Source: a virus (taxonomy: Duplodnaviria; Caudoviricetes). From it: a stretch of DNA of 41,203 nucleotides. The translations under genes were made by a program, and so were the position numbers. The stretch spans positions 1 through 41,203 of the IMG/VR virus record IMGVR_UViG_3300032116_000478. One strand, given 5' to 3'. This document shows, in pieces, positions 10,324 to 40,412 of this stretch; the first letter of the stretch is position 1, and every line of letters starts with the position of its first letter. Below the pieces are notes generated by a model. It made no database searches, was not told the origin of the DNA, and saw only the letters and a program-made list of their open reading frames with translations.

Positions 10324-12165
10324 ATGGCAACCTACGGCTATTCCACACCATACACCGGACAGCAGGTGCAGACGCTGCCACCCGGCTATCTGGAGGCCGC
10401 AACCGCTCCTGGACGCAACCTGGCGATGGGCATTGCTGCCATGGGTCAGGGCCTCGGGAAGGCCATCGAGCAGTATCGCACCAAGAAGGCTGAGACCGAG
10501 GCTGCCACACAGAGCTGGGAGACTGTCTCCGGGCTGATGCAGCAGCAGTTGGCTTCGGACCCCAAGTACCTTGCCATTCAGCAGTACATGGAGACCGGTG
10601 CGCTCCCACAAGGCGTCACCGAGCAGGATATCCCGCGGTACACCCAGCAGGTGCAGGCCGACCGGGAGATGCTCAACAAGTTCTCGGCTCTCGGTGAGAA
10701 GTTTCCGGACATGAGCCTTGCCAAGAAGAAGGCGGCTCTTGGGGACGCTGTGATGGTGCTGAACCAGTACCGGACGGATCAGCAGAATCAGGTGCGCGAT
10801 GCGGCGGCTAGGCAGCAGTTGAGACTCGTTGAGTTGCAGTTGCAGGAGGCTCAAGACAAACGCAGGCAGAATGAGATCCTGACCAGTGCCATCAGATACG
10901 GCTTGGAACAGCCGACGACGACCACTCAGACGCAGCAGGTCACCGATACGATTGAGTTCCCACCGATGCCGGGTGTTCCTACGCCTGCCGTTCAATCAAC
11001 TCCGTCTCAGGCTGAAGCCACTGCTGCACGCTATTTCATGGGGCGCTACGGTCAGGCAGCTCAACAGCTTCAGCAGTACGGTGCCGGACTTGGAAGACAG
11101 GCAAACGCATTGAACGTGTCTCAAACGCCAAGATTTACTGGGCCTATTTCACTCGGCCAGGAAGACAATGAGGCGTATCTCAGTCAGCAGTTTGAATCTC
11201 CTATTGAGGCTGCGGCTAGGGCTGAAGCAAACACCCGCCTGAAGGAACAGCAGCTTGCCGAGTCTCAAGCGGCTCTTCAGCAGGCTGGAATCATGTCTAG
11301 GTCGCCTGCATTGAAGACGATTGGGCCTCGGACTTTGCAGCCTGCTCAAGAGACTGCTCCTATGCAGCAGCCTCCCGAGACGATCACGCGCAATGTTTCG
11401 ACTCAGGTTCCTATCAGCTATGAGGACCAGTCAAAGAGGCTGACGCAGTTCTTGGTTCAACAGGGTGCCAAGCCTGAGACGATTGCCATGGTTCCGCAGA
11501 TTCTGTCTATGGTCGGACAGCAGAGGCCTACCCGCGTTGAGCAGGTTGGAAACATTGGTTCTGTGGTTCGCTTTGGTAATGACAAGGAGCAGTTCGTTCC
11601 TGCAAAGGAGGCGAACATTGGAGATATGCTGAAGGTCAGGGGCCTGACCATCGACTTCCCTGAGTTCCGCGGAACTGCTCCTACTGAAGCCGAGGCTTCC
11701 AAGTTCCGCGAACAATATTCCAACGTGCTTGATAGCCGTAAGGCAATCGCTGAACTGTTGGACATCGCAAAAATGGGTACTGCTATGCAGCAGACCCCTG
11801 AGGTGAGGGCACGAGCCAACTCATTAGCTTCAGGTCTTCGAGGAATTGAACGCATCAACATTATTGGTCCGGGAACCATAACTCCTGAAGATTTCAAGCT
11901 GCTGAATAGCGTGATTCCAGATCCGACTTCAATTTTCTCGCTGAAGAAGTCGAACATTCAGGCGTTTGAGACGATGCTGCAAAAGTCTGCTAGGGCTATT
12001 GAATCAAGAGCCAAATCCATTGGACTTGAGGTGCTGAAGCCTGATCAGCAACAGACTGTTTCATCACTGTTGAACGACCCGAGAGTGGCTTCTATTCGCG
12101 CCCGAGCAGCTTCTGGCGCGATCACCCGCCAACAAGCCGCTCAAGAACTTAAATCTATCCAATGA
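10324..12165 (+). CDS. Putative DNA ejection/internal virion protein
   Basis: 613 aa; Q/A-rich helical with Gly-rich amphipathic N-terminus; precedes the giant ejection protein. Confidence 0.7.
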   Translation: MATYGYSTPYTGQQVQTLPPGYLEAATAPGRNLAMGIAAMGQGLGKAIEQYRTKKAETEAATQSWETVSGLMQQQLASDPKYLAIQQYMETGALPQGVTEQDIPRYTQQVQADREMLNKFSALGEKFPDMSLAKKKAALGDAVMVLNQYRTDQQNQVRDAAARQQLRLVELQLQEAQDKRRQNEILTSAIRYGLEQPTTTTQTQQVTDTIEFPPMPGVPTPAVQSTPSQAEATAARYFMGRYGQAAQQLQQYGAGLGRQANALNVSQTPRFTGPISLGQEDNEAYLSQQFESPIEAAARAEANTRLKEQQLAESQAALQQAGIMSRSPALKTIGPRTLQPAQETAPMQQPPETITRNVSTQVPISYEDQSKRLTQFLVQQGAKPETIAMVPQILSMVGQQRPTRVEQVGNIGSVVRFGNDKEQFVPAKEANIGDMLKVRGLTIDFPEFRGTAPTEAEASKFREQYSNVLDSRKAIAELLDIAKMGTAMQQTPEVRARANSLASGLRGIERINIIGPGTITPEDFKLLNSVIPDPTSIFSLKKSNIQAFETMLQKSARAIESRAKSIGLEVLKPDQQQTVSSLLNDPRVASIRARAASGAITRQQAAQELKSIQ

Positions 12166-15100
12166 CCCTATCCCAAGCGGACATCGACTCGTTGCTCGGG
12201 CCTGAACCAGCAGACAGCGTCGAAAGCCTGCTGGATGCCCCATTGACCGGCGAGGACATCTCGCTGGCGATGCAAGACCCGTCATTCACTCCTAGCAAGA
12301 GTGACTACCTGAAGTACGAGGAGTACGCCAAGACCAAGCAGACCGATTGGATCAACACTGCTGCTCAGGCCGCTGATGCTGCCATCGGAATGATTGGCAG
12401 TGCTGTTTCTCAGGGAGCTCAAGGAGCTGCTGCAAACCCTCTGAACTACATTGAGGGATTTGCCCAAGGAACTCGCCAGCTCTATGGCCTTGCGGCTCAG
12501 TCGCAAGACCCATCGTCACCGCTCTTCAAGTTCAAGGATCTAGTGGCAGGCACTGGCACCGAGGAATCGCGCTATCAGCAGTTCCTTGATGCGCGAGACT
12601 TTGCCAACACAACCGCCCGTCTTGAGCGTGGTGAAGAGGGTGTGATTGTTCCGCCTGAGTACACCAACCCGGAGTATGTGCAGGGCGTGTCGCTGATTCT
12701 CGACCCGACCCTGTTCGTTCCAGGTGTTGGTGAGATCCTTGGTGCTGGCAAACTGTCGGCAAAAGCTGTCGGCAAGGGCGCACAGCTTGCGGGACGTGCT
12801 GTTGCTGGCGTTGCAAAGCCTCTGGAGCGCTTTGCAGGCGCTGCCGAGCGCATGACAGCGGAAGCGCTTGGAATGACGCCAGAAGCGCTTCGCACCGCTG
12901 CTTCAACAGCCGGTGTTGCTGGTGCTCTTGGAATTGCTCCAGAGGCCGCAGCTTTTGCCGCTATCCCTGCCGGTATCCGTACCGCACGCGAGGCTGGTGA
13001 AGCACTGGCAATGGCCGGCGAGAACCTGATGACCCAGCCTTCCCGTGTTGGTCCATTGCAGGCCATCGGTGCCGCTCCGGGCGCCAACCTGCGCCAGCGT
13101 ATGCTGGGTGTGATCGGTCAGTACGGCGGAGATGCCGCGGTCGACGCTGCTCTGCGAGGCACTGCCGGTGGACTAGAGGGTGCCGTGTTGGGAACCGGCA
13201 TCGGATACCTTTCCGGTGGCGAGGAAGGCGCTGCTGCTGGACTCGGATCTGGTGCTGCTCAAGGTGCTCTTGGTGCTCTCGGTGGCCGTGCTTACCAGAA
13301 GCTCACCGGCAAGGCTGCCGCGGAAGCCCGTGCTGGAGACTTGGGGCGATTCATTGAAGGCCTGCAAGATCCGACGACCAAAGGCCTTTTCGAGCGTGTC
13401 CGAGATACGCACGGAGTCGATGCAGCCTCGGCGCTGATGGATGTTGAAGGACTGGTCAAAGGCCGGTTCGGTGATGTCGACATCAAGTACCTGTCGGACG
13501 TTGACTTCGTTGATCAGTACAAGGGCCGTGCCCGTGGCGTGCAGGTTGAGATTGGAGACCGACCGACCATCGTCATCAATGCCGACATCCTCGGCAAAGG
13601 CAAAGGCGACAGCCCCCTCTACACGCTGGGCCATGAGCTGTTCCATGCTCTTGAAAAGAGCGAGCAGCTCTCAGGTGGTGCCACCGAGATCAAGAACGCT
13701 CTTGTCGGTCGCTGGATTCAGGAAGGCGACGTCATTCGAAAGCTGGCCGATGGCGTTTTTAATGACGCCGAGATTGAGGCTAGGTTCAATGAGTACCGCG
13801 ACAAGCTGGCTGCTGGTAATGCCCAGCGTGCTGCAGAACTTGCCCAGTTCGACACGATCAACAAGAAGGCCGACTACATCGCTTCGGAGCTGGCTGCGGA
13901 ACACTTCGCAGCACTGATTGCTGGTCAGAAGCCTGATGCGATGCTCAAGGGCTTCTCAGGTCTTACTAGGCAGCTTCTTGACGCTGCGCTGACTCAGAAC
14001 GCCAGCAAGGCAATCGCCAACGCTGCCGCGGCTATTGAGCGCACCTTCGGCGTGAAACCGACAGACTCGGTGCTGTTCCCGGATCTGAAGCAGGCCTCGC
14101 CTCAGATCAACGCCATGCTGCGTGACCTGGTGCGTGCCCGTCGCAAGCTGGACGAGAAGATCATGCTAGACGACAGCCGCGGTGGCCGCGTGCTGAAGCC
14201 GGAGGATGTTTCTAACCCGTTGGCGGCTAAGGAACTGGTCGACCTTGGATTGGCCGAGCAGATGCCCGATGGAAGCATCAGGAACCTTTCTAGCGAAGAG
14301 ATCCGAGCACGCGACGACAAGGATCTGACATCGTTGCGATCCATTACCGAGAAGATTCCTGGAGCCAGACTTGTCGACGGTGAAATCACTGGTCGATTCA
14401 GCCCCGAGCAGCTCAGTGCCATCGAGCAATCGCAGACGATCAGCTCCCGGATGAAGGACAAGATCCGTGCCGTCAATTTGGCAATGGAGAATGGCAACAG
14501 CTTGTTCGTCACTTACTTTGCAGCACTTCGCCGAGTGAGGAATAGGCTCACTGGTAAGGATTCGCCCAAATACAGCAGCGGAATCAAAGTCAGCGAACGG
14601 GAGTTCTCTCCGTACAGTTTCTGGATCACAAAGGCTGACAATCCGGTGGTCAGGGCCATCGACATCACCAAGGTCCGAAACGAACTCAGCAAGCTGCTGA
14701 AGAAGGATGGAAGCATCGGTGGCCTGTGGAGCAACACAGATGGATTTATGACCGATCTGGCGAGGTACTTCACCAACCTCGACCAGAAAGAAGGTGCTCG
14801 CCGTTCCGCTGAGATCTTCGGAGTTGAGAAGGCCAAGTTCCTCGGTGACTTCGTAGGCGCTGCTGAGAAGAGCGGAAGCAAGTTCGTTCGCAGCTTCCGG
14901 CTGGATCGTGTTGGCTCGATGACTCCGATGGACTTCAAAGCGAAGTTCTCCGAGGAAGCCTACCAGCTATCGAAGCAGCGCTGGATGCCTGCCGAGACCA
15001 TCGGAGACAAGCTGGTCACCAACTCCGACGAGGGCTACCGCATTGTCAGCGGCGCCAAGCACCGACTCTACGGTCCCGACGGCAAGCTGATCGGGATCTA

Positions 15101-17954
15101 CGACACCCAAACCCAAGCAGAAAGGAAAGCAGATGCCACTCAAGCAAGGCTACAGCCAGAAGTCGATCAGCAGCAACGTGTCCCGGGAGATGAAGGCCGG
15201 CAAACCGCAGAAGCAGGCGGTGGCAATCGCGCTCTCGGTGGCACGGAAGGCGGCCAAGAAGGCCGGCAAGCCGACCGGACGGTTCGACAAGCGGGGGATG
15301 TGAGGTTCATGCCGATGTCGGATCTTGAACGGTCTGACATCGACTTGCGCATCAGCACCCGCAACCCGTCTGCCAAGAAGGCGACCGAGAACCCACTTAC
15401 ACAGCAGTTGTCGATTGACCTTGAGTCGATCACGCGCACTCCAGGTGCTTTGCCAGAAATCATCAACACGGTTGGGAAGTATCCTGGAATCAAGTTTGAG
15501 CGGTCTGGCTCAATGAACCGTGCGAAAGACTTCATTCGGTTCGTTGCAGACAACCTGATTTACCTGCACGACAGCGTTCAGCCTGAGATCAGGGATAGGT
15601 CGAAGCTCTGGTATGATGGAGCCAGAAAACTGACCGAGGATTGGTCGAAGCGATTCGACACCACCCGCGAAGGTGTTGCCGGAGTGATCGCATCGTTGTC
15701 TCCTCAGAAGGACTGGTATCAAAACGTGACCCTTGCGGAGAGGGTTTTCGAGGTTGTCAAAACCAAGCAGAACGAGGCGTTTACTGGGCCACTGGAGCAG
15801 TGGGCACGCAGCAAGATGACCTCTGGTCAAAGCCCGAAGCGCTTGGTTCAGGATGAGGTTATCAACGGCATGGCTGGGAAGAAGTTCTCTCAGCTTTCAG
15901 ACTATGAAAAGGCGGTCTTCGTTCGTGCATTTGATGAGGTCAACAACACCAGGACCTATCCAATCGTGTCTCCCGAAGGCAAGATGCTGGATATCGCTAG
16001 GAAGGCCGATGGAACGCCTGCAACCTATGCTTGGGGCGACTTCAATTCGATAGCCAAAGCGGTCAAGATTGCCGGAGATCCGACGAAGAAAACGATCTCT
16101 GAATCGCTAGGATACGAGCACAAGGTCCGCTCGTTCTACGACAACATCCTGCTCCCAAACAACCCGGAGCATGGAGATGTCACCATCGACACGCACGCCG
16201 TGGCCGCAGCGTTGATGCTGCCGCTTGCTGGTTCGGACGTGTATGTGGCGCACAACTTTGGACAGGGAGTCCCTGGAAGCAGCGTTTATGGAACCAGCGG
16301 CACCTATGGCATCTACGCTGATGCCTACAGACTTGCAGCCAAGGAACGCGGAATCCTTCCCCGTGAAATGCAGTCGATTACCTGGGAGGCAGTCCGAGGG
16401 CTGTTCACGCCAGAGTTCAAGACTGCTGGAAATAAAAAGTTGGTTGAAAACATCTGGAAAGAGTACAAGTCAGGAAAGGCCACCATTGATGAAACAAGAC
16501 AGCGCATCGTCGACACGGCAGGCGGAATCCGCAACCCAAGCTGGTTCGGATCCGGTGGTGCAGCAGTTGCGGAAAATGCGCCTGCCGTTAACCCGCGCCA
16601 ACTACCTGGCGCTGGCAATATGGGAGAATCGGGAGCCAACGCCGGAGGAGGAAGCAACCTTTCCAGAGCAGGTGCGCCGGAAGTAGGCAGCCAGCGCTTC
16701 ATGCCATCCGACACCGACTACCTGTCCGCGGTGAAAGCTGGCGACACGGCTGCCGCGCAGCGGATGGTCGATGAGGCGGCTAATGCGGCGGGGTACACGG
16801 TTGGGCCGGTGTGGCATGGTGGAGCAAAGCCGACGGTGTTCAACGTTCGCGCCGGAGAGAAGACATCAAGGCACGAATCGTCAGCACTTGGTTCATTTTT
16901 CTCTGATTCAGAAGAAACCGCGTCTCAATACGGAAACACTGCTCCGTATTTCCTGCGCATTGAAAACCCAATTGAACTCTCAGAAAGAGAGCAGTCCGCA
17001 TTGGATACCGTAGCGAAGGCGAGACTGTTCAGAATGAAGGCAAAGCAAGATGGGTTTGATGGGGCTATTATTAGGACTCAGGATGCGCCTGGATTCAAAG
17101 GAGGTACAGAATACGTTGCCTTCGACCCAACCCAGATCAAATCCGCCGAGCCAATCACCCGCGACAATCAAGGCAACGTCATCCCGCTCTCGCAGCGCTT
17201 CCAGACGAGCAGCGCGGATATCCGGTTCATGCCGGAGTCCATCCAACGCGACATCGGCCGCAATCAGGACTTCGCCAACCCGCCTACGGACACCGAGGCT
17301 GTCGATGCTTTGAGCTCGGAGAAAAAGGCAAAGTTTGGTGCTGCCAGAAACATCAAACCGGGCACTCAGGTGGCAGCACGCATCGACATCCCGGCCTTCC
17401 TGAGAACCGGAAAGTATGTGGTCGCTGTGCACGAGCCTGATGGCGCTGCTGGTGGACCTGGTAAGGTGATCGGATACGATACCGTGACCCGTTTGCAGAA
17501 CCCGAAGTTTGTGGTCAAACCCGGCGTGCAACGGATCTACGAGGGCAAGTCCGCCAAGTTCCCGGTGGCAACTGTCGACGGCAAGATCATGGCCGACAGA
17601 TCCATCCCGGATGACTTGGAGAACTATGTGCCAGTCGGTATGGACCCGAAGGAACACGCCTACTTCTACGACAAGCGCACCGATCAGCCCGTCATCGGTG
17701 GCTCTGAGTCTGTGAGCGTAGGCAACACGGTGTTCGTGAAGAACCCGGTGTATGGCGATCCCAGCCAGTTTGCCTTCATGCCCTCCCCCGACTCCTCGAT
17801 GCCCGGCGCCTACTCGTTCACCGGAGGCTACCGCGCACTTCCAGGAAAATCGAAAGGCAGCCTGCGGATTTACAGCCCTGCCGGCAGCCTGATCGGCATC
17901 GCGGCCAGCCTTGACGAGGCGCAGCGCATCATCCGAAAGAAGGCCAAGCAATGA
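12162..17954 (+). CDS. Large polyvalent ejection protein: Gly/Ala membrane-type region, zincin metallopeptidase-like domain, HhH-glycosylase-like domain, ADP-ribosyltransferase-like (ART-PolyVal) domain, unknown domains
   Basis: 1930 aa; LGHELFHALE (13632-13646) plus downstream ELAAE; WY...ASLSPQ..W..NV...KVRSFYDNI...VTIDTHA...MQSITW; AQRMVDEAA..AGY..VWHG...GFDG..EYVAFDPTQIKSA...IPLSQRF. Confidence 0.85.
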   Translation: MTLSQADIDSLLGPEPADSVESLLDAPLTGEDISLAMQDPSFTPSKSDYLKYEEYAKTKQTDWINTAAQAADAAIGMIGSAVSQGAQGAAANPLNYIEGFAQGTRQLYGLAAQSQDPSSPLFKFKDLVAGTGTEESRYQQFLDARDFANTTARLERGEEGVIVPPEYTNPEYVQGVSLILDPTLFVPGVGEILGAGKLSAKAVGKGAQLAGRAVAGVAKPLERFAGAAERMTAEALGMTPEALRTAASTAGVAGALGIAPEAAAFAAIPAGIRTAREAGEALAMAGENLMTQPSRVGPLQAIGAAPGANLRQRMLGVIGQYGGDAAVDAALRGTAGGLEGAVLGTGIGYLSGGEEGAAAGLGSGAAQGALGALGGRAYQKLTGKAAAEARAGDLGRFIEGLQDPTTKGLFERVRDTHGVDAASALMDVEGLVKGRFGDVDIKYLSDVDFVDQYKGRARGVQVEIGDRPTIVINADILGKGKGDSPLYTLGHELFHALEKSEQLSGGATEIKNALVGRWIQEGDVIRKLADGVFNDAEIEARFNEYRDKLAAGNAQRAAELAQFDTINKKADYIASELAAEHFAALIAGQKPDAMLKGFSGLTRQLLDAALTQNASKAIANAAAAIERTFGVKPTDSVLFPDLKQASPQINAMLRDLVRARRKLDEKIMLDDSRGGRVLKPEDVSNPLAAKELVDLGLAEQMPDGSIRNLSSEEIRARDDKDLTSLRSITEKIPGARLVDGEITGRFSPEQLSAIEQSQTISSRMKDKIRAVNLAMENGNSLFVTYFAALRRVRNRLTGKDSPKYSSGIKVSEREFSPYSFWITKADNPVVRAIDITKVRNELSKLLKKDGSIGGLWSNTDGFMTDLARYFTNLDQKEGARRSAEIFGVEKAKFLGDFVGAAEKSGSKFVRSFRLDRVGSMTPMDFKAKFSEEAYQLSKQRWMPAETIGDKLVTNSDEGYRIVSGAKHRLYGPDGKLIGIYDTQTQAERKADATQARLQPEVDQQQRVPGDEGRQTAEAGGGNRALGGTEGGQEGRQADRTVRQAGDVRFMPMSDLERSDIDLRISTRNPSAKKATENPLTQQLSIDLESITRTPGALPEIINTVGKYPGIKFERSGSMNRAKDFIRFVADNLIYLHDSVQPEIRDRSKLWYDGARKLTEDWSKRFDTTREGVAGVIASLSPQKDWYQNVTLAERVFEVVKTKQNEAFTGPLEQWARSKMTSGQSPKRLVQDEVINGMAGKKFSQLSDYEKAVFVRAFDEVNNTRTYPIVSPEGKMLDIARKADGTPATYAWGDFNSIAKAVKIAGDPTKKTISESLGYEHKVRSFYDNILLPNNPEHGDVTIDTHAVAAALMLPLAGSDVYVAHNFGQGVPGSSVYGTSGTYGIYADAYRLAAKERGILPREMQSITWEAVRGLFTPEFKTAGNKKLVENIWKEYKSGKATIDETRQRIVDTAGGIRNPSWFGSGGAAVAENAPAVNPRQLPGAGNMGESGANAGGGSNLSRAGAPEVGSQRFMPSDTDYLSAVKAGDTAAAQRMVDEAANAAGYTVGPVWHGGAKPTVFNVRAGEKTSRHESSALGSFFSDSEETASQYGNTAPYFLRIENPIELSEREQSALDTVAKARLFRMKAKQDGFDGAIIRTQDAPGFKGGTEYVAFDPTQIKSAEPITRDNQGNVIPLSQRFQTSSADIRFMPESIQRDIGRNQDFANPPTDTEAVDALSSEKKAKFGAARNIKPGTQVAARIDIPAFLRTGKYVVAVHEPDGAAGGPGKVIGYDTVTRLQNPKFVVKPGVQRIYEGKSAKFPVATVDGKIMADRSIPDDLENYVPVGMDPKEHAYFYDKRTDQPVIGGSESVSVGNTVFVKNPVYGDPSQFAFMPSPDSSMPGAYSFTGGYRALPGKSKGSLRIYSPAGSLIGIAASLDEAQRIIRKKAKQ
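15133..15303 (+). CDS. Nested +1-frame gene: small basic protein MPLKQGYSQKSISSNVSREMKAGKPQKQAVAIALSVARKAAKKAGKPTGRFDKRGM
   Basis: Read manually (56 aa, not in the ORF track); AAAGGA at 15121-15126 before the ATG; matches the MPLKxGxSxxxISxN...GKPQKQAVAIALS pattern of stand-alone small phage genes. Confidence 0.8.
   Translation: MPLKQGYSQKSISSNVSREMKAGKPQKQAVAIALSVARKAAKKAGKPTGRFDKRGM
16489..16686 (+). CDS. Nested +1-frame gene: 65-aa protein ...DPVVQQLRKMRLPLTRANYLALAIWENREPTPEEEATFPEQVRRK
   Basis: AGGAAAGG ~9 nt upstream of the ATG; protein-like C-half while the host frame is a G/A-rich linker; stops 5 nt before the QRFMP junction. Confidence 0.68.
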   Translation: MKQDSASSTRQAESATQAGSDPVVQQLRKMRLPLTRANYLALAIWENREPTPEEEATFPEQVRRK

Positions 17955-38328: not shown

Positions 38329-38709
38329 ATGAATCAGAACGCTTCCTCAGTCATTGCAAACGCTCTGGACGATCTTCCCGGAGATCTGCGCCGTGCGGTC
38401 ATCAAGGAGTTCGAAAAAGGCATCCAGAAGGACTGGGTGCAGGCCGGCATCCAGCAGAAGCGGATCGCCAAGGACTCGCAGACCGACTTGCGCAGTGTGG
38501 ACGGCATCGGCCGTCTTCGGATGCGTATCGACCCTACGCTGTACCATGCCTGGGGCACGAAGTACGGCTACGACTGCTGGAAGGACTCGCAGTTCCTGAA
38601 GGAGATCGAGCGCGACAACCCGGAGGTTAGGGTTAAGTGCGGGGGTACACGCTTGCAGGTCGGTTGGCAAGGTGGCACAAAGAGGAGCAGTCAGAAGTTC
38701 ACTTTATGA
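38329..38709 (+). CDS. Hypothetical protein (head-module)
   Basis: ATG after the terminator; YGYDCWKDSQFLKEIERDNPE motif. Confidence 0.8.
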   Translation: MNQNASSVIANALDDLPGDLRRAVIKEFEKGIQKDWVQAGIQQKRIAKDSQTDLRSVDGIGRLRMRIDPTLYHAWGTKYGYDCWKDSQFLKEIERDNPEVRVKCGGTRLQVGWQGGTKRSSQKFTL

Positions 38710-38960
38710 ATGTTGGCTCTAATCGTCAGCTCGCCGGCGAGTTCGGCGGCAAATACATCACCGCGGCCGACGGTACGGTGAGCGGCAACTGGATGGAGAT
38801 CCATGCCGTCTCGACGTCGATCCTGTCGGGCTGCACGTCCAACATCACCGGCTTGGGCTCTGGCGTGACCATACAGGCCGGCGATTCGATCTCCGGTGTG
38901 TTCACCTCGCTCGCTCTGAGCAGCGGCGGTATCGTGGCGTACAACCGCAAGTGGGTCTAA
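38706..38960 (+). CDS. Small structural hypothetical protein (copy of 226-480)
   Basis: Within the repeat. Confidence 0.75.
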   Translation: MNVGSNRQLAGEFGGKYITAADGTVSGNWMEIHAVSTSILSGCTSNITGLGSGVTIQAGDSISGVFTSLALSSGGIVAYNRKWV

Positions 38961-38963
38961 TCA

Positions 38964-39200
38964 ATGAGACTGGGACTAGGCCTCGGCGTTGACGTCCAGC
39001 GGTTCGCTGGCGGCGGCGGCGGTGCGGACTATCCCATACTGCGGCGTGACTTGCTGCAGGAGGACGAGTTCTTTGTTCTGCTGGAGAATGGCACTGACAA
39101 GATCGTCATCACCTTCGGCACTTTCGATTCTTTGCTCTTGGAAAGCGGGGACTTCCTGCTCCAGGAGGACACAGGCAAACTGATCATCCAAGCAAACTAG
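38964..39200 (+). CDS. Small structural protein with LLxE repeats (copy of 484-720)
   Basis: Within the repeat. Confidence 0.75.
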   Translation: MRLGLGLGVDVQRFAGGGGGADYPILRRDLLQEDEFFVLLENGTDKIVITFGTFDSLLLESGDFLLQEDTGKLIIQAN

Positions 39201-39203
39201 CAT

Positions 39204-40412
39204 ATGGCAGACACGAAAATCACGGCCTTGGCGGCCATCACCACCGTCGATCCCGCGGCAGACGTTCTGCCGATTGTGGACGTCTCCGATACGTCGATGG
39301 CGGCGTCGGGCACCACGAAGAAGATCACCTCCAATCAGATCCTCGGAGCCGGCGGCACCGCCACCCTCGCCTCCGCCACCATCACCGGCGACCTGACGGT
39401 TCGAACGAACAAGCTGGCGGTTACTTCGACTGGTGTGGGTGCTGGCACTGCGAGTCCGACCAATCTGTTTACAATCGGCACTGGCACTTATTCAGTAGCT
39501 GCTGCTTCCGGTACAGCGTCGATGTATGCAACGGTTGCTCAAGGGTTGGTGGTGCTTTCGGATGCTGTCACTTTTGCATCTAGGACTGGAGGCGACAAAC
39601 TTCTGCTCGACTCCTCCGGCAACGTCGGCGTGGGGGTTACGCCGAGTGCGTGGCATAGCACTTACAAGGCGTTCCAGATTGGTGCTGGTGGATCTGTTGC
39701 ATACACGACTGATACCACTGGATATTCGTTTCTCCTTAACAATGCGTATTACGATGGAACAAATTGGTTGCGATTGATCGGAACCGCTGGAACTCCTGTT
39801 GCTGCTACCGCATACAGCCAAAATCAGGGACAACATCAATGGCTTTACGCAGGAACCGGGACGGCAGCATCTACGATCACCTGGACAACCGGGATGACGC
39901 TGGATGCGAGTGGGAATCTGTTGGTGGGGAAGACGGCTCTTAGCGATACCACTGTTGGTTGGTATGTCAGACCGAATGGCATCACAACCGCAACGATGTC
40001 TTCTTCTGTTAATACTGATACAAGCTATCAACTTTATTCAACTGGTGCATCAGCTTATCGTTTCTATGTCGGAATGGGAGGCACTGTGTACGCCACCAAC
40101 ACGACGATTTCTGCAATCTCAGATGCTCGCTTGAAGGAGAACGTGCAGGACATCGACGTTGGTCTTGATGCCATCCTCGCCCTCAAGCCCCGCAAGTTCG
40201 ATTGGAAGACTGGAAAAGGTAAGAACATCAAGGGAGACCGTGGTTTCATCGCTCAGGAGTTTGAAACCGTGTTCCCGAACCTGATCGACGAGTGGAAAGA
40301 TCCTGCCCCTGAAGGAGAGGCTCCTTACAAGTCCGTTCGCCAAGACCTCATTCCTGTGCTGGTGAAGGCCATTCAGGAACTCACCGCCCGTGTTGAAGCA
40401 CTCGAAGCCTAA
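39204..40412 (+). CDS. Tail fibre with S74-like chaperone, allele B
   Basis: Identical protein to 724-1935 except the last residues (TARVEALEA vs AAEVNALKNA). Confidence 0.9.
   Translation: MADTKITALAAITTVDPAADVLPIVDVSDTSMAASGTTKKITSNQILGAGGTATLASATITGDLTVRTNKLAVTSTGVGAGTASPTNLFTIGTGTYSVAAASGTASMYATVAQGLVVLSDAVTFASRTGGDKLLLDSSGNVGVGVTPSAWHSTYKAFQIGAGGSVAYTTDTTGYSFLLNNAYYDGTNWLRLIGTAGTPVAATAYSQNQGQHQWLYAGTGTAASTITWTTGMTLDASGNLLVGKTALSDTTVGWYVRPNGITTATMSSSVNTDTSYQLYSTGASAYRFYVGMGGTVYATNTTISAISDARLKENVQDIDVGLDAILALKPRKFDWKTGKGKNIKGDRGFIAQEFETVFPNLIDEWKDPAPEGEAPYKSVRQDLIPVLVKAIQELTARVEALEA

Follow-up and report, generated by a model that had tools for sequence, protein, structure and literature searches.

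Two small genes nested in the +1 frame of a giant phage polyvalent gene, one of them the likely partner of a predicted glycosylase cassette

Results

A phage cassette-array gene contains two complete +1 reading frames

The window, by which we mean the whole stretch of DNA analysed, comprises 41203 bases, has an end repeat of 1907 nt and is complete as a phage record. It encodes a 1930-aa protein whose chain carries several unrelated enzymatic or conflict domains (ART-PolyVal, DUF7178, phrog_586 and HExxH), as polyvalent proteins do. The gene is a cassette array, with exchangeable units delimited by R[FY]MP, and its relatives exchange in PBECR5 and GNAT cassettes. We take its HELFH sequence to be a zincin-type metalloprotease motif, and thus a candidate processing protease. 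A tail-fibre-like gene comes next and the upstream genes have weak virion matches, a late, virion-gene setting from which we infer that the protein is packaged and injected. Phage polyvalent proteins, including their MPTase domains, are treated by Iyer et al. 2017 (PMC5512222). The features of the locus, all on the plus strand, are as follows.

12162..17954, +, host polyvalent gene, 1930 aa; N-terminal part constant, then swappable cassettes between R[FYW]MP-like motifs
13632..13646, +, HELFH, an HExxH zincin-type motif by sequence; candidate processing protease
14979..14990, +, RWMP junction at the start of the small constant module in which ORF1 lies
15123..15126, +, AGGA, Shine-Dalgarno-like site of ORF1, 6 nt 5' of its ATG
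15133..15303, +, ORF1, nested, +1 frame; ATG 15133, TGA 15303; 56 aa; net charge +12; phrog_2423
15303..15314, +, RFMP junction, first point of cassette exchange
15351..16544, +, cassette of DUF7178 type, predicted to fold as an HhH DNA glycosylase and ending at a P-x-W motif
16122..16190, +, invariant Lys (host aa 1321, HKVR) and Asp (aa 1343, TIDTH), kept in 97/97
16472..16479, +, AGGAAAGG, purine tract before ORF2, a weaker Shine-Dalgarno-like site
16489..16686, +, ORF2, nested, +1 frame; ATG 16489, TAG 16686; 65 aa; candidate partner/inhibitor
16695..16706, +, RFMP junction, second point of cassette exchange
16809..17150, +, ART-PolyVal domain cassette, without a conserved nested gene

A preliminary description of this DNA had noted two ATG-started +1 ORFs in low-complexity linkers, and we confirmed their coordinates, frame and composition: both start and stop inside the host ORF, and both linkers are rich in G/A/R/Q/E. 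Each ORF also ends at or just before an RFMP junction, as reported. The final base of the ORF1 TGA is the first base of the RFMP Arg codon (15303), and ORF2 stops 8 nt 5' of RFMP at 16695. The AGGA-type ribosome-binding site claimed for each is clear for ORF1 and weaker for ORF2, where AGGA (16472-16475) and AAGG (16476-16479) lie 13 and 9 nt upstream of the ATG, with computed energies of -5.6 and -4.9 kcal/mol; an in-frame TTG sits just 5' of this ATG, at 16486. No sigma-70 promoter was found within 14500-17000. A 1482-nt contig from an independent run (X2) is identical to the window over 15285-16766, so ORF2 and the open host frame around it are not an assembly error.

Selection acts on the +1 frame of both linkers

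The preliminary description had proposed comparing selection between frames, looking for interruptions of the ORFs in homologues, and searching for stand-alone relatives. Purifying selection acts on the +1 frames but not on the overlying host frame. For ORF1, pN/pS was 0.25 in the +1 frame (p 1e-7) versus 2.25 in the host frame, while the host frame of the 45 codons upstream gave 0.13. ORF2 behaved in the same way, with 0.26 versus 2.57 among 3 close sequences (p 9e-6 for +1) and 0.27 (p 6e-13) versus 2.90 in another clade of 26 sequences. Across 60 divergent nested loci, the same 25 codons were 47% identical when read in the +1 frame and 25% identical in the host frame. ORF1 is intact in 44 of 45 homologous segments, the remaining one being cut by a contig edge, and the AAAGGAAAGCA stretch 5' of its start is identical in 45/45. 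In the ORF2 family, 91% of 67 loci have a start with a good Shine-Dalgarno score, compared to 26% of 548 control windows. The linkers are thus shadows of real genes, as had been suggested, and the linker is the dispensable frame.

Other +1 ORFs of the host gene were discarded as candidates: homologous segments carry stops in those at 13441-13917 (25/35), 14206-14328 (14/33) and 16771-17013 (7/10), the one at 17752-17892 is open in 14/14 but has an ATG in only 4, and three more have just 1-2 homologues each. An unbiased search for nested families gave many spurious low-complexity clusters and only four that resembled proteins. We also rejected R[FY]MP itself as an internal start or frameshift signal, as its codons vary synonymously over 149 junctions.

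ORF1 belongs to a family found mostly among head genes

ORF1, the sole copy in this genome, matches positions 1-44 of the 52 in the phrog_2423 profile (E 1e-19), a match of family length. Most loci of this family (74/80) lie outside any long ORF, and the free-standing relatives adjoin major capsid, adaptor, portal, terminase, scaffold or head-morphogenesis genes. PB1 gp20 is one such relative among head genes, and the N-terminus of the BcepB1A prohead protease is another member. The preliminary description had cast ORF1 as a possible immunity protein. A toxin-immunity gene should have a fixed enzyme neighbor; here the neighbors of the free-standing relatives vary and are mostly head or packaging genes, and the cassette downstream of ORF1 is exchanged freely among relatives. 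ORF1 is therefore probably not an immunity gene. Its case would be separate from that of ORF2, with a basic head-module gene having moved into the constant part of the giant gene, and its role is likely to be in head assembly or DNA packaging.

The cassette before ORF2 is predicted to have a DNA-glycosylase fold

A structure model of the cassette reached a pLDDT of 93.9, and 18 of its best 20 fold matches were DNA glycosylases (Z 5.0-8.4; best match Z 8.4, rmsd 4.0, 184 aligned), with the first unrelated match at Z 4.5. These Z-scores are middling, and they predict by fold that the cassette belongs to the HhH-GPD DNA glycosylase superfamily. Foldseek with this model found nothing in the PDB at E<=0.001 and only uncharacterised phage proteins in BFVD, and a PDB sequence search found no relative. 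A model built earlier, from 3 sequences, had a poor pLDDT of 50 and gave no meaningful fold matches. We take the invariant Lys1321 and Asp1343 to be the likely catalytic pair, presumably equivalent by their spacing to that of OGG and EndoIII. The P-x-W motif at the cassette end is where the gene stops in non-nested relatives, and ORF2 begins within the last helix of the predicted structure.

ORF2 and the cassette are tightly paired

ORF2 directly follows the cassette, always in +1, in 128 of 159 cassette loci. It is nested with the host continuing in 53 of these and nested with a short host tail in 59; in the other 16 it is an ordinary overlapping downstream gene, because the host stops inside it. 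Where the host stops early, the host frame over ORF2 is riddled with stops (13 non-redundant loci listed). Starting from the ORF2 DNA motif alone, we found the cassette directly upstream in 87/91 loci; two others had too little DNA, one had the cassette 527 nt away, and one (L348) had none within 2.4 kb. Thus, among informative loci retrieved independently of the cassette, ORF2 adjoins or lies near it in 88/89. ORF2 still lies 3' of the gene despite an inserted domain between them in L159 and L337, and is a fully separate gene behind the cassette gene in L294 and L363. Stand-alone homologues thus exist for both ORF1 and ORF2, and both families occur as ordinary genes, so the view that they are newly arisen, overprinted genes does not hold: 74/80 ORF1 loci are outside a long ORF, and ORF2 is a downstream gene in 16/159 cassette loci and separate in the four loci just named. 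Copies of the pair also occur in the cultured bacteria Jannaschia seohaensis DSM 25227, Pseudofulvimonas gallinarii DSM 21944 and three Bradyrhizobium strains, those of Jannaschia and Bradyrhizobium being prophage-like.

ORF2 is thus a small gene directly downstream of, and strictly linked to, an enzyme domain, as in toxin-immunity pairs. Such pairs would also imply that the active enzyme never lacks the small gene, and this was not the case. An ORF2 match is absent from 28/159 cassette loci, 7 of them with a visibly diverged or displaced copy, and 12 of 97 non-redundant cassettes, in three lineages on the tree, have no ORF2 within the fetched DNA. These cassettes retain all 31 invariant residues checked, the likely catalytic ones included, so the enzyme can exist without ORF2; the largest such lineage carries another in-frame extension at its C-terminus. 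Residue differences seen in the ORF2-less cassettes were set aside as a signal, being confounded by one clade. More distant cassettes in the cultured phages CRP-738 and zth2-2 are not followed by ORF2. Among genome contigs, the ORF2 HMM matched in only 22/42 loci, and visual inspection added ~13 more with a small +1 ORF of similar kind. The correlation between cassette identity and ORF2 identity is modest (Spearman 0.33). Since ORF2 shares DNA with the cassette's last helix, co-inheritance is favored by physical linkage alone.

The ORF2 family is mostly acidic (median net charge -5, pI 4.6), whereas the window's own ORF2, with a net charge of +1, is not. The family is unnamed. Searches with ORF2 gave no match in Pfam, PHROG or PADLOC and no relative in a PDB sequence search; a single-sequence homologue search found no match, and Atlas matches all scored <0.8.

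The preliminary description had supposed that each module carries its own partner. This fits ORF2, which behaves like a dedicated partner of the cassette before it, and fails for the window's ART-PolyVal and phrog_586-like cassettes, in neither of which is a nested ORF conserved. Another glycosylase-like cassette, of L085 type and weakly linked to the DUF7178-type cassette of the window, carries a +1 ORF at the corresponding position in 26/28 scorable loci, with a +1 pN/pS of 0.82 (p 0.55) and an identity of 0.34 in +1 versus 0.40 in the host frame.

Discussion

We propose that the two nested frames represent phage genes of long standing, under selection, which the giant gene likely engulfed when it came to read through them in a different frame. 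ORF2 would likely be a partner dedicated to the predicted glycosylase cassette preceding it, and most likely its inhibitor; we give this reading a probability of about 0.55. The cassette may have been captured as a two-gene operon, an enzyme gene overlapped at its end by a small gene. Once the enzyme's stop was lost, read-through to the next R[FY]MP joint would have turned the small gene's DNA into a Gly/Ala/Arg-rich linker. The pair is seen in three states, with the host stopping inside ORF2, stopping just past it, or continuing into further cassettes; the cassette tree is unrooted and does not fix the direction from overlapping to nested. ORF2 could be translated off a late transcript from its own ribosome site and may silence the glycosylase during progeny DNA synthesis, with the enzyme delivered later without it.

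The strongest competitor, which we nonetheless consider rather unlikely, is that ORF2 helps the cassette, as a chaperone, accessory subunit or packaging adaptor. The same forward and reverse pairing would result, the window's ORF2 is not acidic, and the lineages without ORF2 keep their likely catalytic residues, with the C-terminal extension of the largest as a possible replacement. However, a small, mostly acidic family resembles the DNA-mimic glycosylase inhibitors p56 and SAUGI, and a position directly downstream is that of the immunity genes described for MuF toxins (PMC5576092). Less probable still is that both genes are real and independent of the adjacent modules, ORF2 hitchhiking only through its start inside the cassette's last helix. 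This suits ORF1, with its many neighbors, and would accommodate the overlap, the losses in three lineages and L348, but a self-sufficient ORF2 would be expected in varied surroundings, like ORF1, rather than near the cassette in nearly every informative locus, and ORF2 follows the cassette even without overlap.

We give very little weight to the idea that the +1 frames are tails reached by +1 frameshifting, yielding a shortened giant protein that ends in ORF1 or ORF2. In the window the +1 frame is open upstream of both starts (14 codons for ORF1, ~90 for ORF2), and both ORFs terminate at module boundaries. Yet for each ORF a separate start codon with a Shine-Dalgarno-like site is conserved among loci, +1 stops directly precede the ORF2 start in many homologues, and both families exist as free-standing genes. 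Least credible of all is that linker composition produced the ORFs by chance. When the host ORF was shuffled synonymously 2000 times, 10% of trials had a comparable +1 ORF at junction 1, 6% had one at junction 2 and 0.5% had one at both, and most other +1 ORFs of this gene are broken in homologues. The chance of such ORFs in a single sequence is therefore not negligible, and the decisive evidence is comparative: the family matches, stand-alone homologues and frame-specific pN/pS, the last of which refutes a chance origin.

Our preferred reading, engulfed genes with ORF2 as a dedicated partner, shows how a gene can become nested with no new protein: when an enzyme gene extends by read-through across its downstream partner, the novel frame is that of the linker. 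Overlapping, short-tail and fully nested states are all present in relatives. It also yields a search rule for genes that annotation misses in giant phage proteins, namely a G/A/R/E/Q-rich linker with a conservation pattern shifted by one base, and it points to an enzyme-partner pair that lends itself to testing and has copies in cultured bacteria. If ORF2 does inhibit an HhH-type glycosylase, it would provide a new reagent, and cloning the enzyme may require that its partner be known. A wider generalization is possible, although we would sooner doubt than endorse it: giant phage genes may be shuffled arrays of protease-cut cassettes, with the glycosylase cassette a toxin-antidote operon in one frame, its antidote gene in the linker and each glycosylase subfamily having its own antidote, and low-complexity linkers of polyvalent proteins may generally hide unannotated partner genes, including a new class of HhH-glycosylase inhibitors.

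Comparison with known systems

In a literature search, we did not find this nested-partner arrangement in polyvalent genes described. The embedded spanins of lambda offer a parallel: Rz1, a lipoprotein, is encoded by a +1-frame gene wholly within that of its functional partner Rz, as a fixed two-gene unit. Here, in contrast, the host is a cassette array and the cassette-ORF2 pair alternates between overlapping and nested. The cassette shares its predicted fold and a similarly spaced Lys and Asp with the HhH glycosylases OGG2, AGOG and EndoIII (3n0u, 1xqp, 2abk), but is much larger (~390 aa), only 6-17% identical, and part of a polyprotein. Like most of the ORF2 family, the DNA-mimic uracil-DNA glycosylase inhibitors Ugi, p56 and SAUGI are described as small and acidic; they block host UDG, which has another fold, whereas ORF2 would block the phage's own HhH-type enzyme, and PDB and profile searches found no sequence link between them.

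The host gene resembles the polyvalent proteins of PMC5512222 in being large and multidomain, in lying near virion genes, and in having an HExxH motif and an ART-PolyVal domain. The main text of that paper contains 0 occurrences of 'overlap', 'linker' or 'glycosylase', and nested partner genes and R[FY]MP-bounded cassettes are features of our host gene that we did not find in it. In the actinophage ShiLan, as reported in PMC11855218, a whole out-of-frame HNH gene lies within a methylase gene and its in-frame reading is a tolerated loop, much as for the nested ORFs here; that gene is a selfish homing endonuclease, whereas ours are small and non-enzymatic, and ORF2 is tied to the preceding domain. 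Also comparable to the cassette and ORF2 are the MuF polymorphic toxins of temperate phages, which in the account of PMC5576092 place a variable enzymatic domain on a head-region protein, with a small proposed immunity ORF directly after it. Unlike these, our host gene has no MuF domain and its enzyme is an internal cassette, so that the small gene lands inside the host gene.

Host gene and its cassettes

The window, a complete 41203-base phage record, encodes terminase, capsid, DnaB and tail-fibre proteins and has a 1907-nt end repeat. The two copies of this direct repeat (1-1907 and 38481-40387) are 99.8% identical, suggesting a circular or terminally redundant genome, and the gene beyond the repeat differs in length between them (137 vs 158 aa). 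Sequencing runs containing the stretch are labeled as fungus, freshwater and riverine metagenomes. The features considered here are:

12162-17954 (+), host ORF, a 1930-aa polyvalent gene with an HExxH motif, DUF7178, ART-PolyVal and a weak phrog_586 match
15133-15303 (+), ORF1, 56 aa, nested in the +1 frame
15351-16544 (+), the DUF7178-type cassette
16489-16686 (+), ORF2, 65 aa, nested in the +1 frame

We collected 45 loci containing the constant region of the host gene and two containing the DUF7178 part, and split the host proteins wherever an R[FYW]MP-like motif occurs, yielding 37 clusters. The N-terminal part and last module are near-constant; the intervening cassettes, including ART-PolyVal, PBECR5, GNAT and DUF7178-like units, differ in kind, number and order. 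Motif-bounded cassettes are swapped freely among close relatives (window 14979-17783; loci L085-L129). The module ahead of ORF1 (14985-15135) and the last module (17778-17954) look like paralogous small domains.

The nested ORFs evolve as genes

The preliminary description of the two +1 ORFs, each with a purine-rich site upstream and a stop at an RFMP junction, is confirmed, and a contig from an independent run is identical across 15285-16766. Among 2000 synonymous shuffles, the pattern at junction 1 arose in 10%, that at junction 2 in 6%, and both in 0.5%. On a single sequence the nested pattern is thus only moderately unlikely by chance, and so the case rests on relatives.

An intact ORF1 is present in 44 of the 45 homologous segments, the remaining one being cut by a contig end; a few of these loci lie on a shared contig, and there are 35 unique sequences. 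Variable columns at host codon positions 1/2/3 number 24/15/7 over ORF1 versus 8/5/29 just upstream, and pN/pS is 0.25 in the +1 frame versus 2.25 in the host frame. Selection on ORF2 is likewise frame-specific (+1 pN/pS 0.26 and 0.27 vs 2.57 and 2.90 in the host frame). A start with a good Shine-Dalgarno score is present at 91% of 67 scored loci, drawn from 78 non-redundant ORF2-positive loci, compared to 26% of control windows. These comparisons indicate that ORF1 and ORF2 are real genes.

ORF1 is related to head-module genes

ORF1, which matches phrog_2423, also exists as a free-standing gene: 74 of 80 query-found loci are not in long ORFs, and the other six are nested in the same frame. 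We scanned 93 ORFs flanking free-standing copies at 56 loci. Named neighbors were mostly major capsid, head-tail adaptor, portal, terminase, scaffold and head-morphogenesis genes, with some lysis and DNA-metabolism genes; many had no match. The relative in PB1 is gp20, flanked by head morphogenesis and protease genes, and that in BcepB1A makes up the N-terminal end of the prohead protease (gp26; L387:2501-2647). The nested ORF1 is the sole copy in the window genome. The head-gene neighbors argue against the proposed immunity role for ORF1; the best reading is that a head-module gene has moved to this site.

ORF2 is tied to one cassette type

A search with an alignment of three cassettes returned 80 viral and 80 metagenome loci, some contigs being in both sets; after dropping two loci without the anchor motif, 159 sequences remained, window included. 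ORF2 directly follows the cassette in 128, every time in the +1 frame: 53 are nested with the host continuing for at least 60 codons, 59 are nested with a short tail, and in 16 the host stops inside ORF2. The rest comprise 28 without an ORF2 match and three that are too short. In the reverse test, using the ORF2 DNA motif alone, 87 of 91 loci have the cassette directly upstream, although a distant free ORF2 could escape a motif built from cassette-linked copies. The other four include two with too little DNA, one with the cassette 527 nt away and one with none (L348:2426-2608, no cassette within 2.4 kb upstream). At L159 and L337 an extra domain separates cassette from ORF2, yet ORF2 is still 3' of the gene. 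Among genome contigs, an ORF2 match is present at 22 of 42 loci, and visual inspection shows a similar small ORF at ~13 others. Called proteins of the family (245 matches in one search, 234 in another; some tandem repeats) included none belonging to a named family. Judged by these sequence associations, ORF2 is linked to a single cassette type.

Early-stopping hosts end at a P-x-W motif, and across ORF2 numerous stops interrupt their host frame. On a quick unrooted cassette tree (94 sequences; three short ones excluded), the early-stop state requires 6 changes (strong branches force at least 3), full nesting 13 (at least 5) and ORF2 absence 3 (at least 2), indicating that the architecture switched repeatedly while ORF2 persisted. 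Because the tree is unrooted, we infer the direction of change from the dispensable linker frame.

Other nested ORFs

Further +1 ORFs lie at the ends of three glycosylase-like cassette types, open another cassette or follow a zincin-like domain. Most cassettes have none, which does not support the idea that each module carries its own partner. A second glycosylase-like type (L085:7180-7360, L431-L459) has a candidate +1 ORF unrelated to ORF2; at L448 and L456 the host ORF ends and is followed by a small gene. Frame statistics for this family, the one further family analyzed in this way, give no clear signal of selection on the +1 frame (+1 pN/pS 0.82, p 0.55; identity 0.34 in +1 vs 0.40 in the host frame). 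L132 (5970-6250) and L449, after the cassette, have tandem nested +1 ORFs under one open host frame, the first stop adjoining the second ATG. The +1 ORF that opens another type of cassette (L088:10497-10720, L276:689-910) is conserved, and so is the separate family after the zincin-like domain (L250:3626, L265:3569, L271:3152, L274:3659). The literature searched, mainly the main text of non-subscription papers, gives no account of partner genes nested within polyvalent proteins and no mention of DUF7178.

A predicted glycosylase and its possible partner

A cassette model from 97 sequences (pLDDT 93.9) gave nothing significant in Foldseek. A wide structural search placed DNA glycosylases at 18 of its top 20 positions and queuine-salvage enzymes at the other two; the best match was 3n0u (Z 8.4, rmsd 4.0, 184 aligned). 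The cassette has an invariant Lys and Asp 22 residues apart, which, by analogy with OGG/EndoIII, are likely to be the catalytic pair.

Most likely, cassette and ORF2 were captured together as a single operon, and ORF2 was buried when the enzyme frame came to be read through as far as the next junction. Its protein would then be translated from a separate start on late mRNA and may restrain the putative enzyme in the producing cell. An obligatory antidote is argued against by the 12 of 97 non-redundant cassettes that lack ORF2 within the fetched DNA and retain the invariant residues, by distant cultured examples without ORF2, and by the window's own ORF2, which is not acidic. One ORF2-less clade (L220, L221, L224, L229, L232, L233, L251, L253, L269) has in common many surface substitutions and an in-frame C-terminal extension of a different kind.

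Codons of the R[FYW]MP motif vary synonymously across 149 junctions, so the motif is kept as protein. It is a candidate recombination joint, and may also be where the HExxH domain cleaves; processing by such a domain has been proposed in general for polyvalent proteins (PMC5512222).
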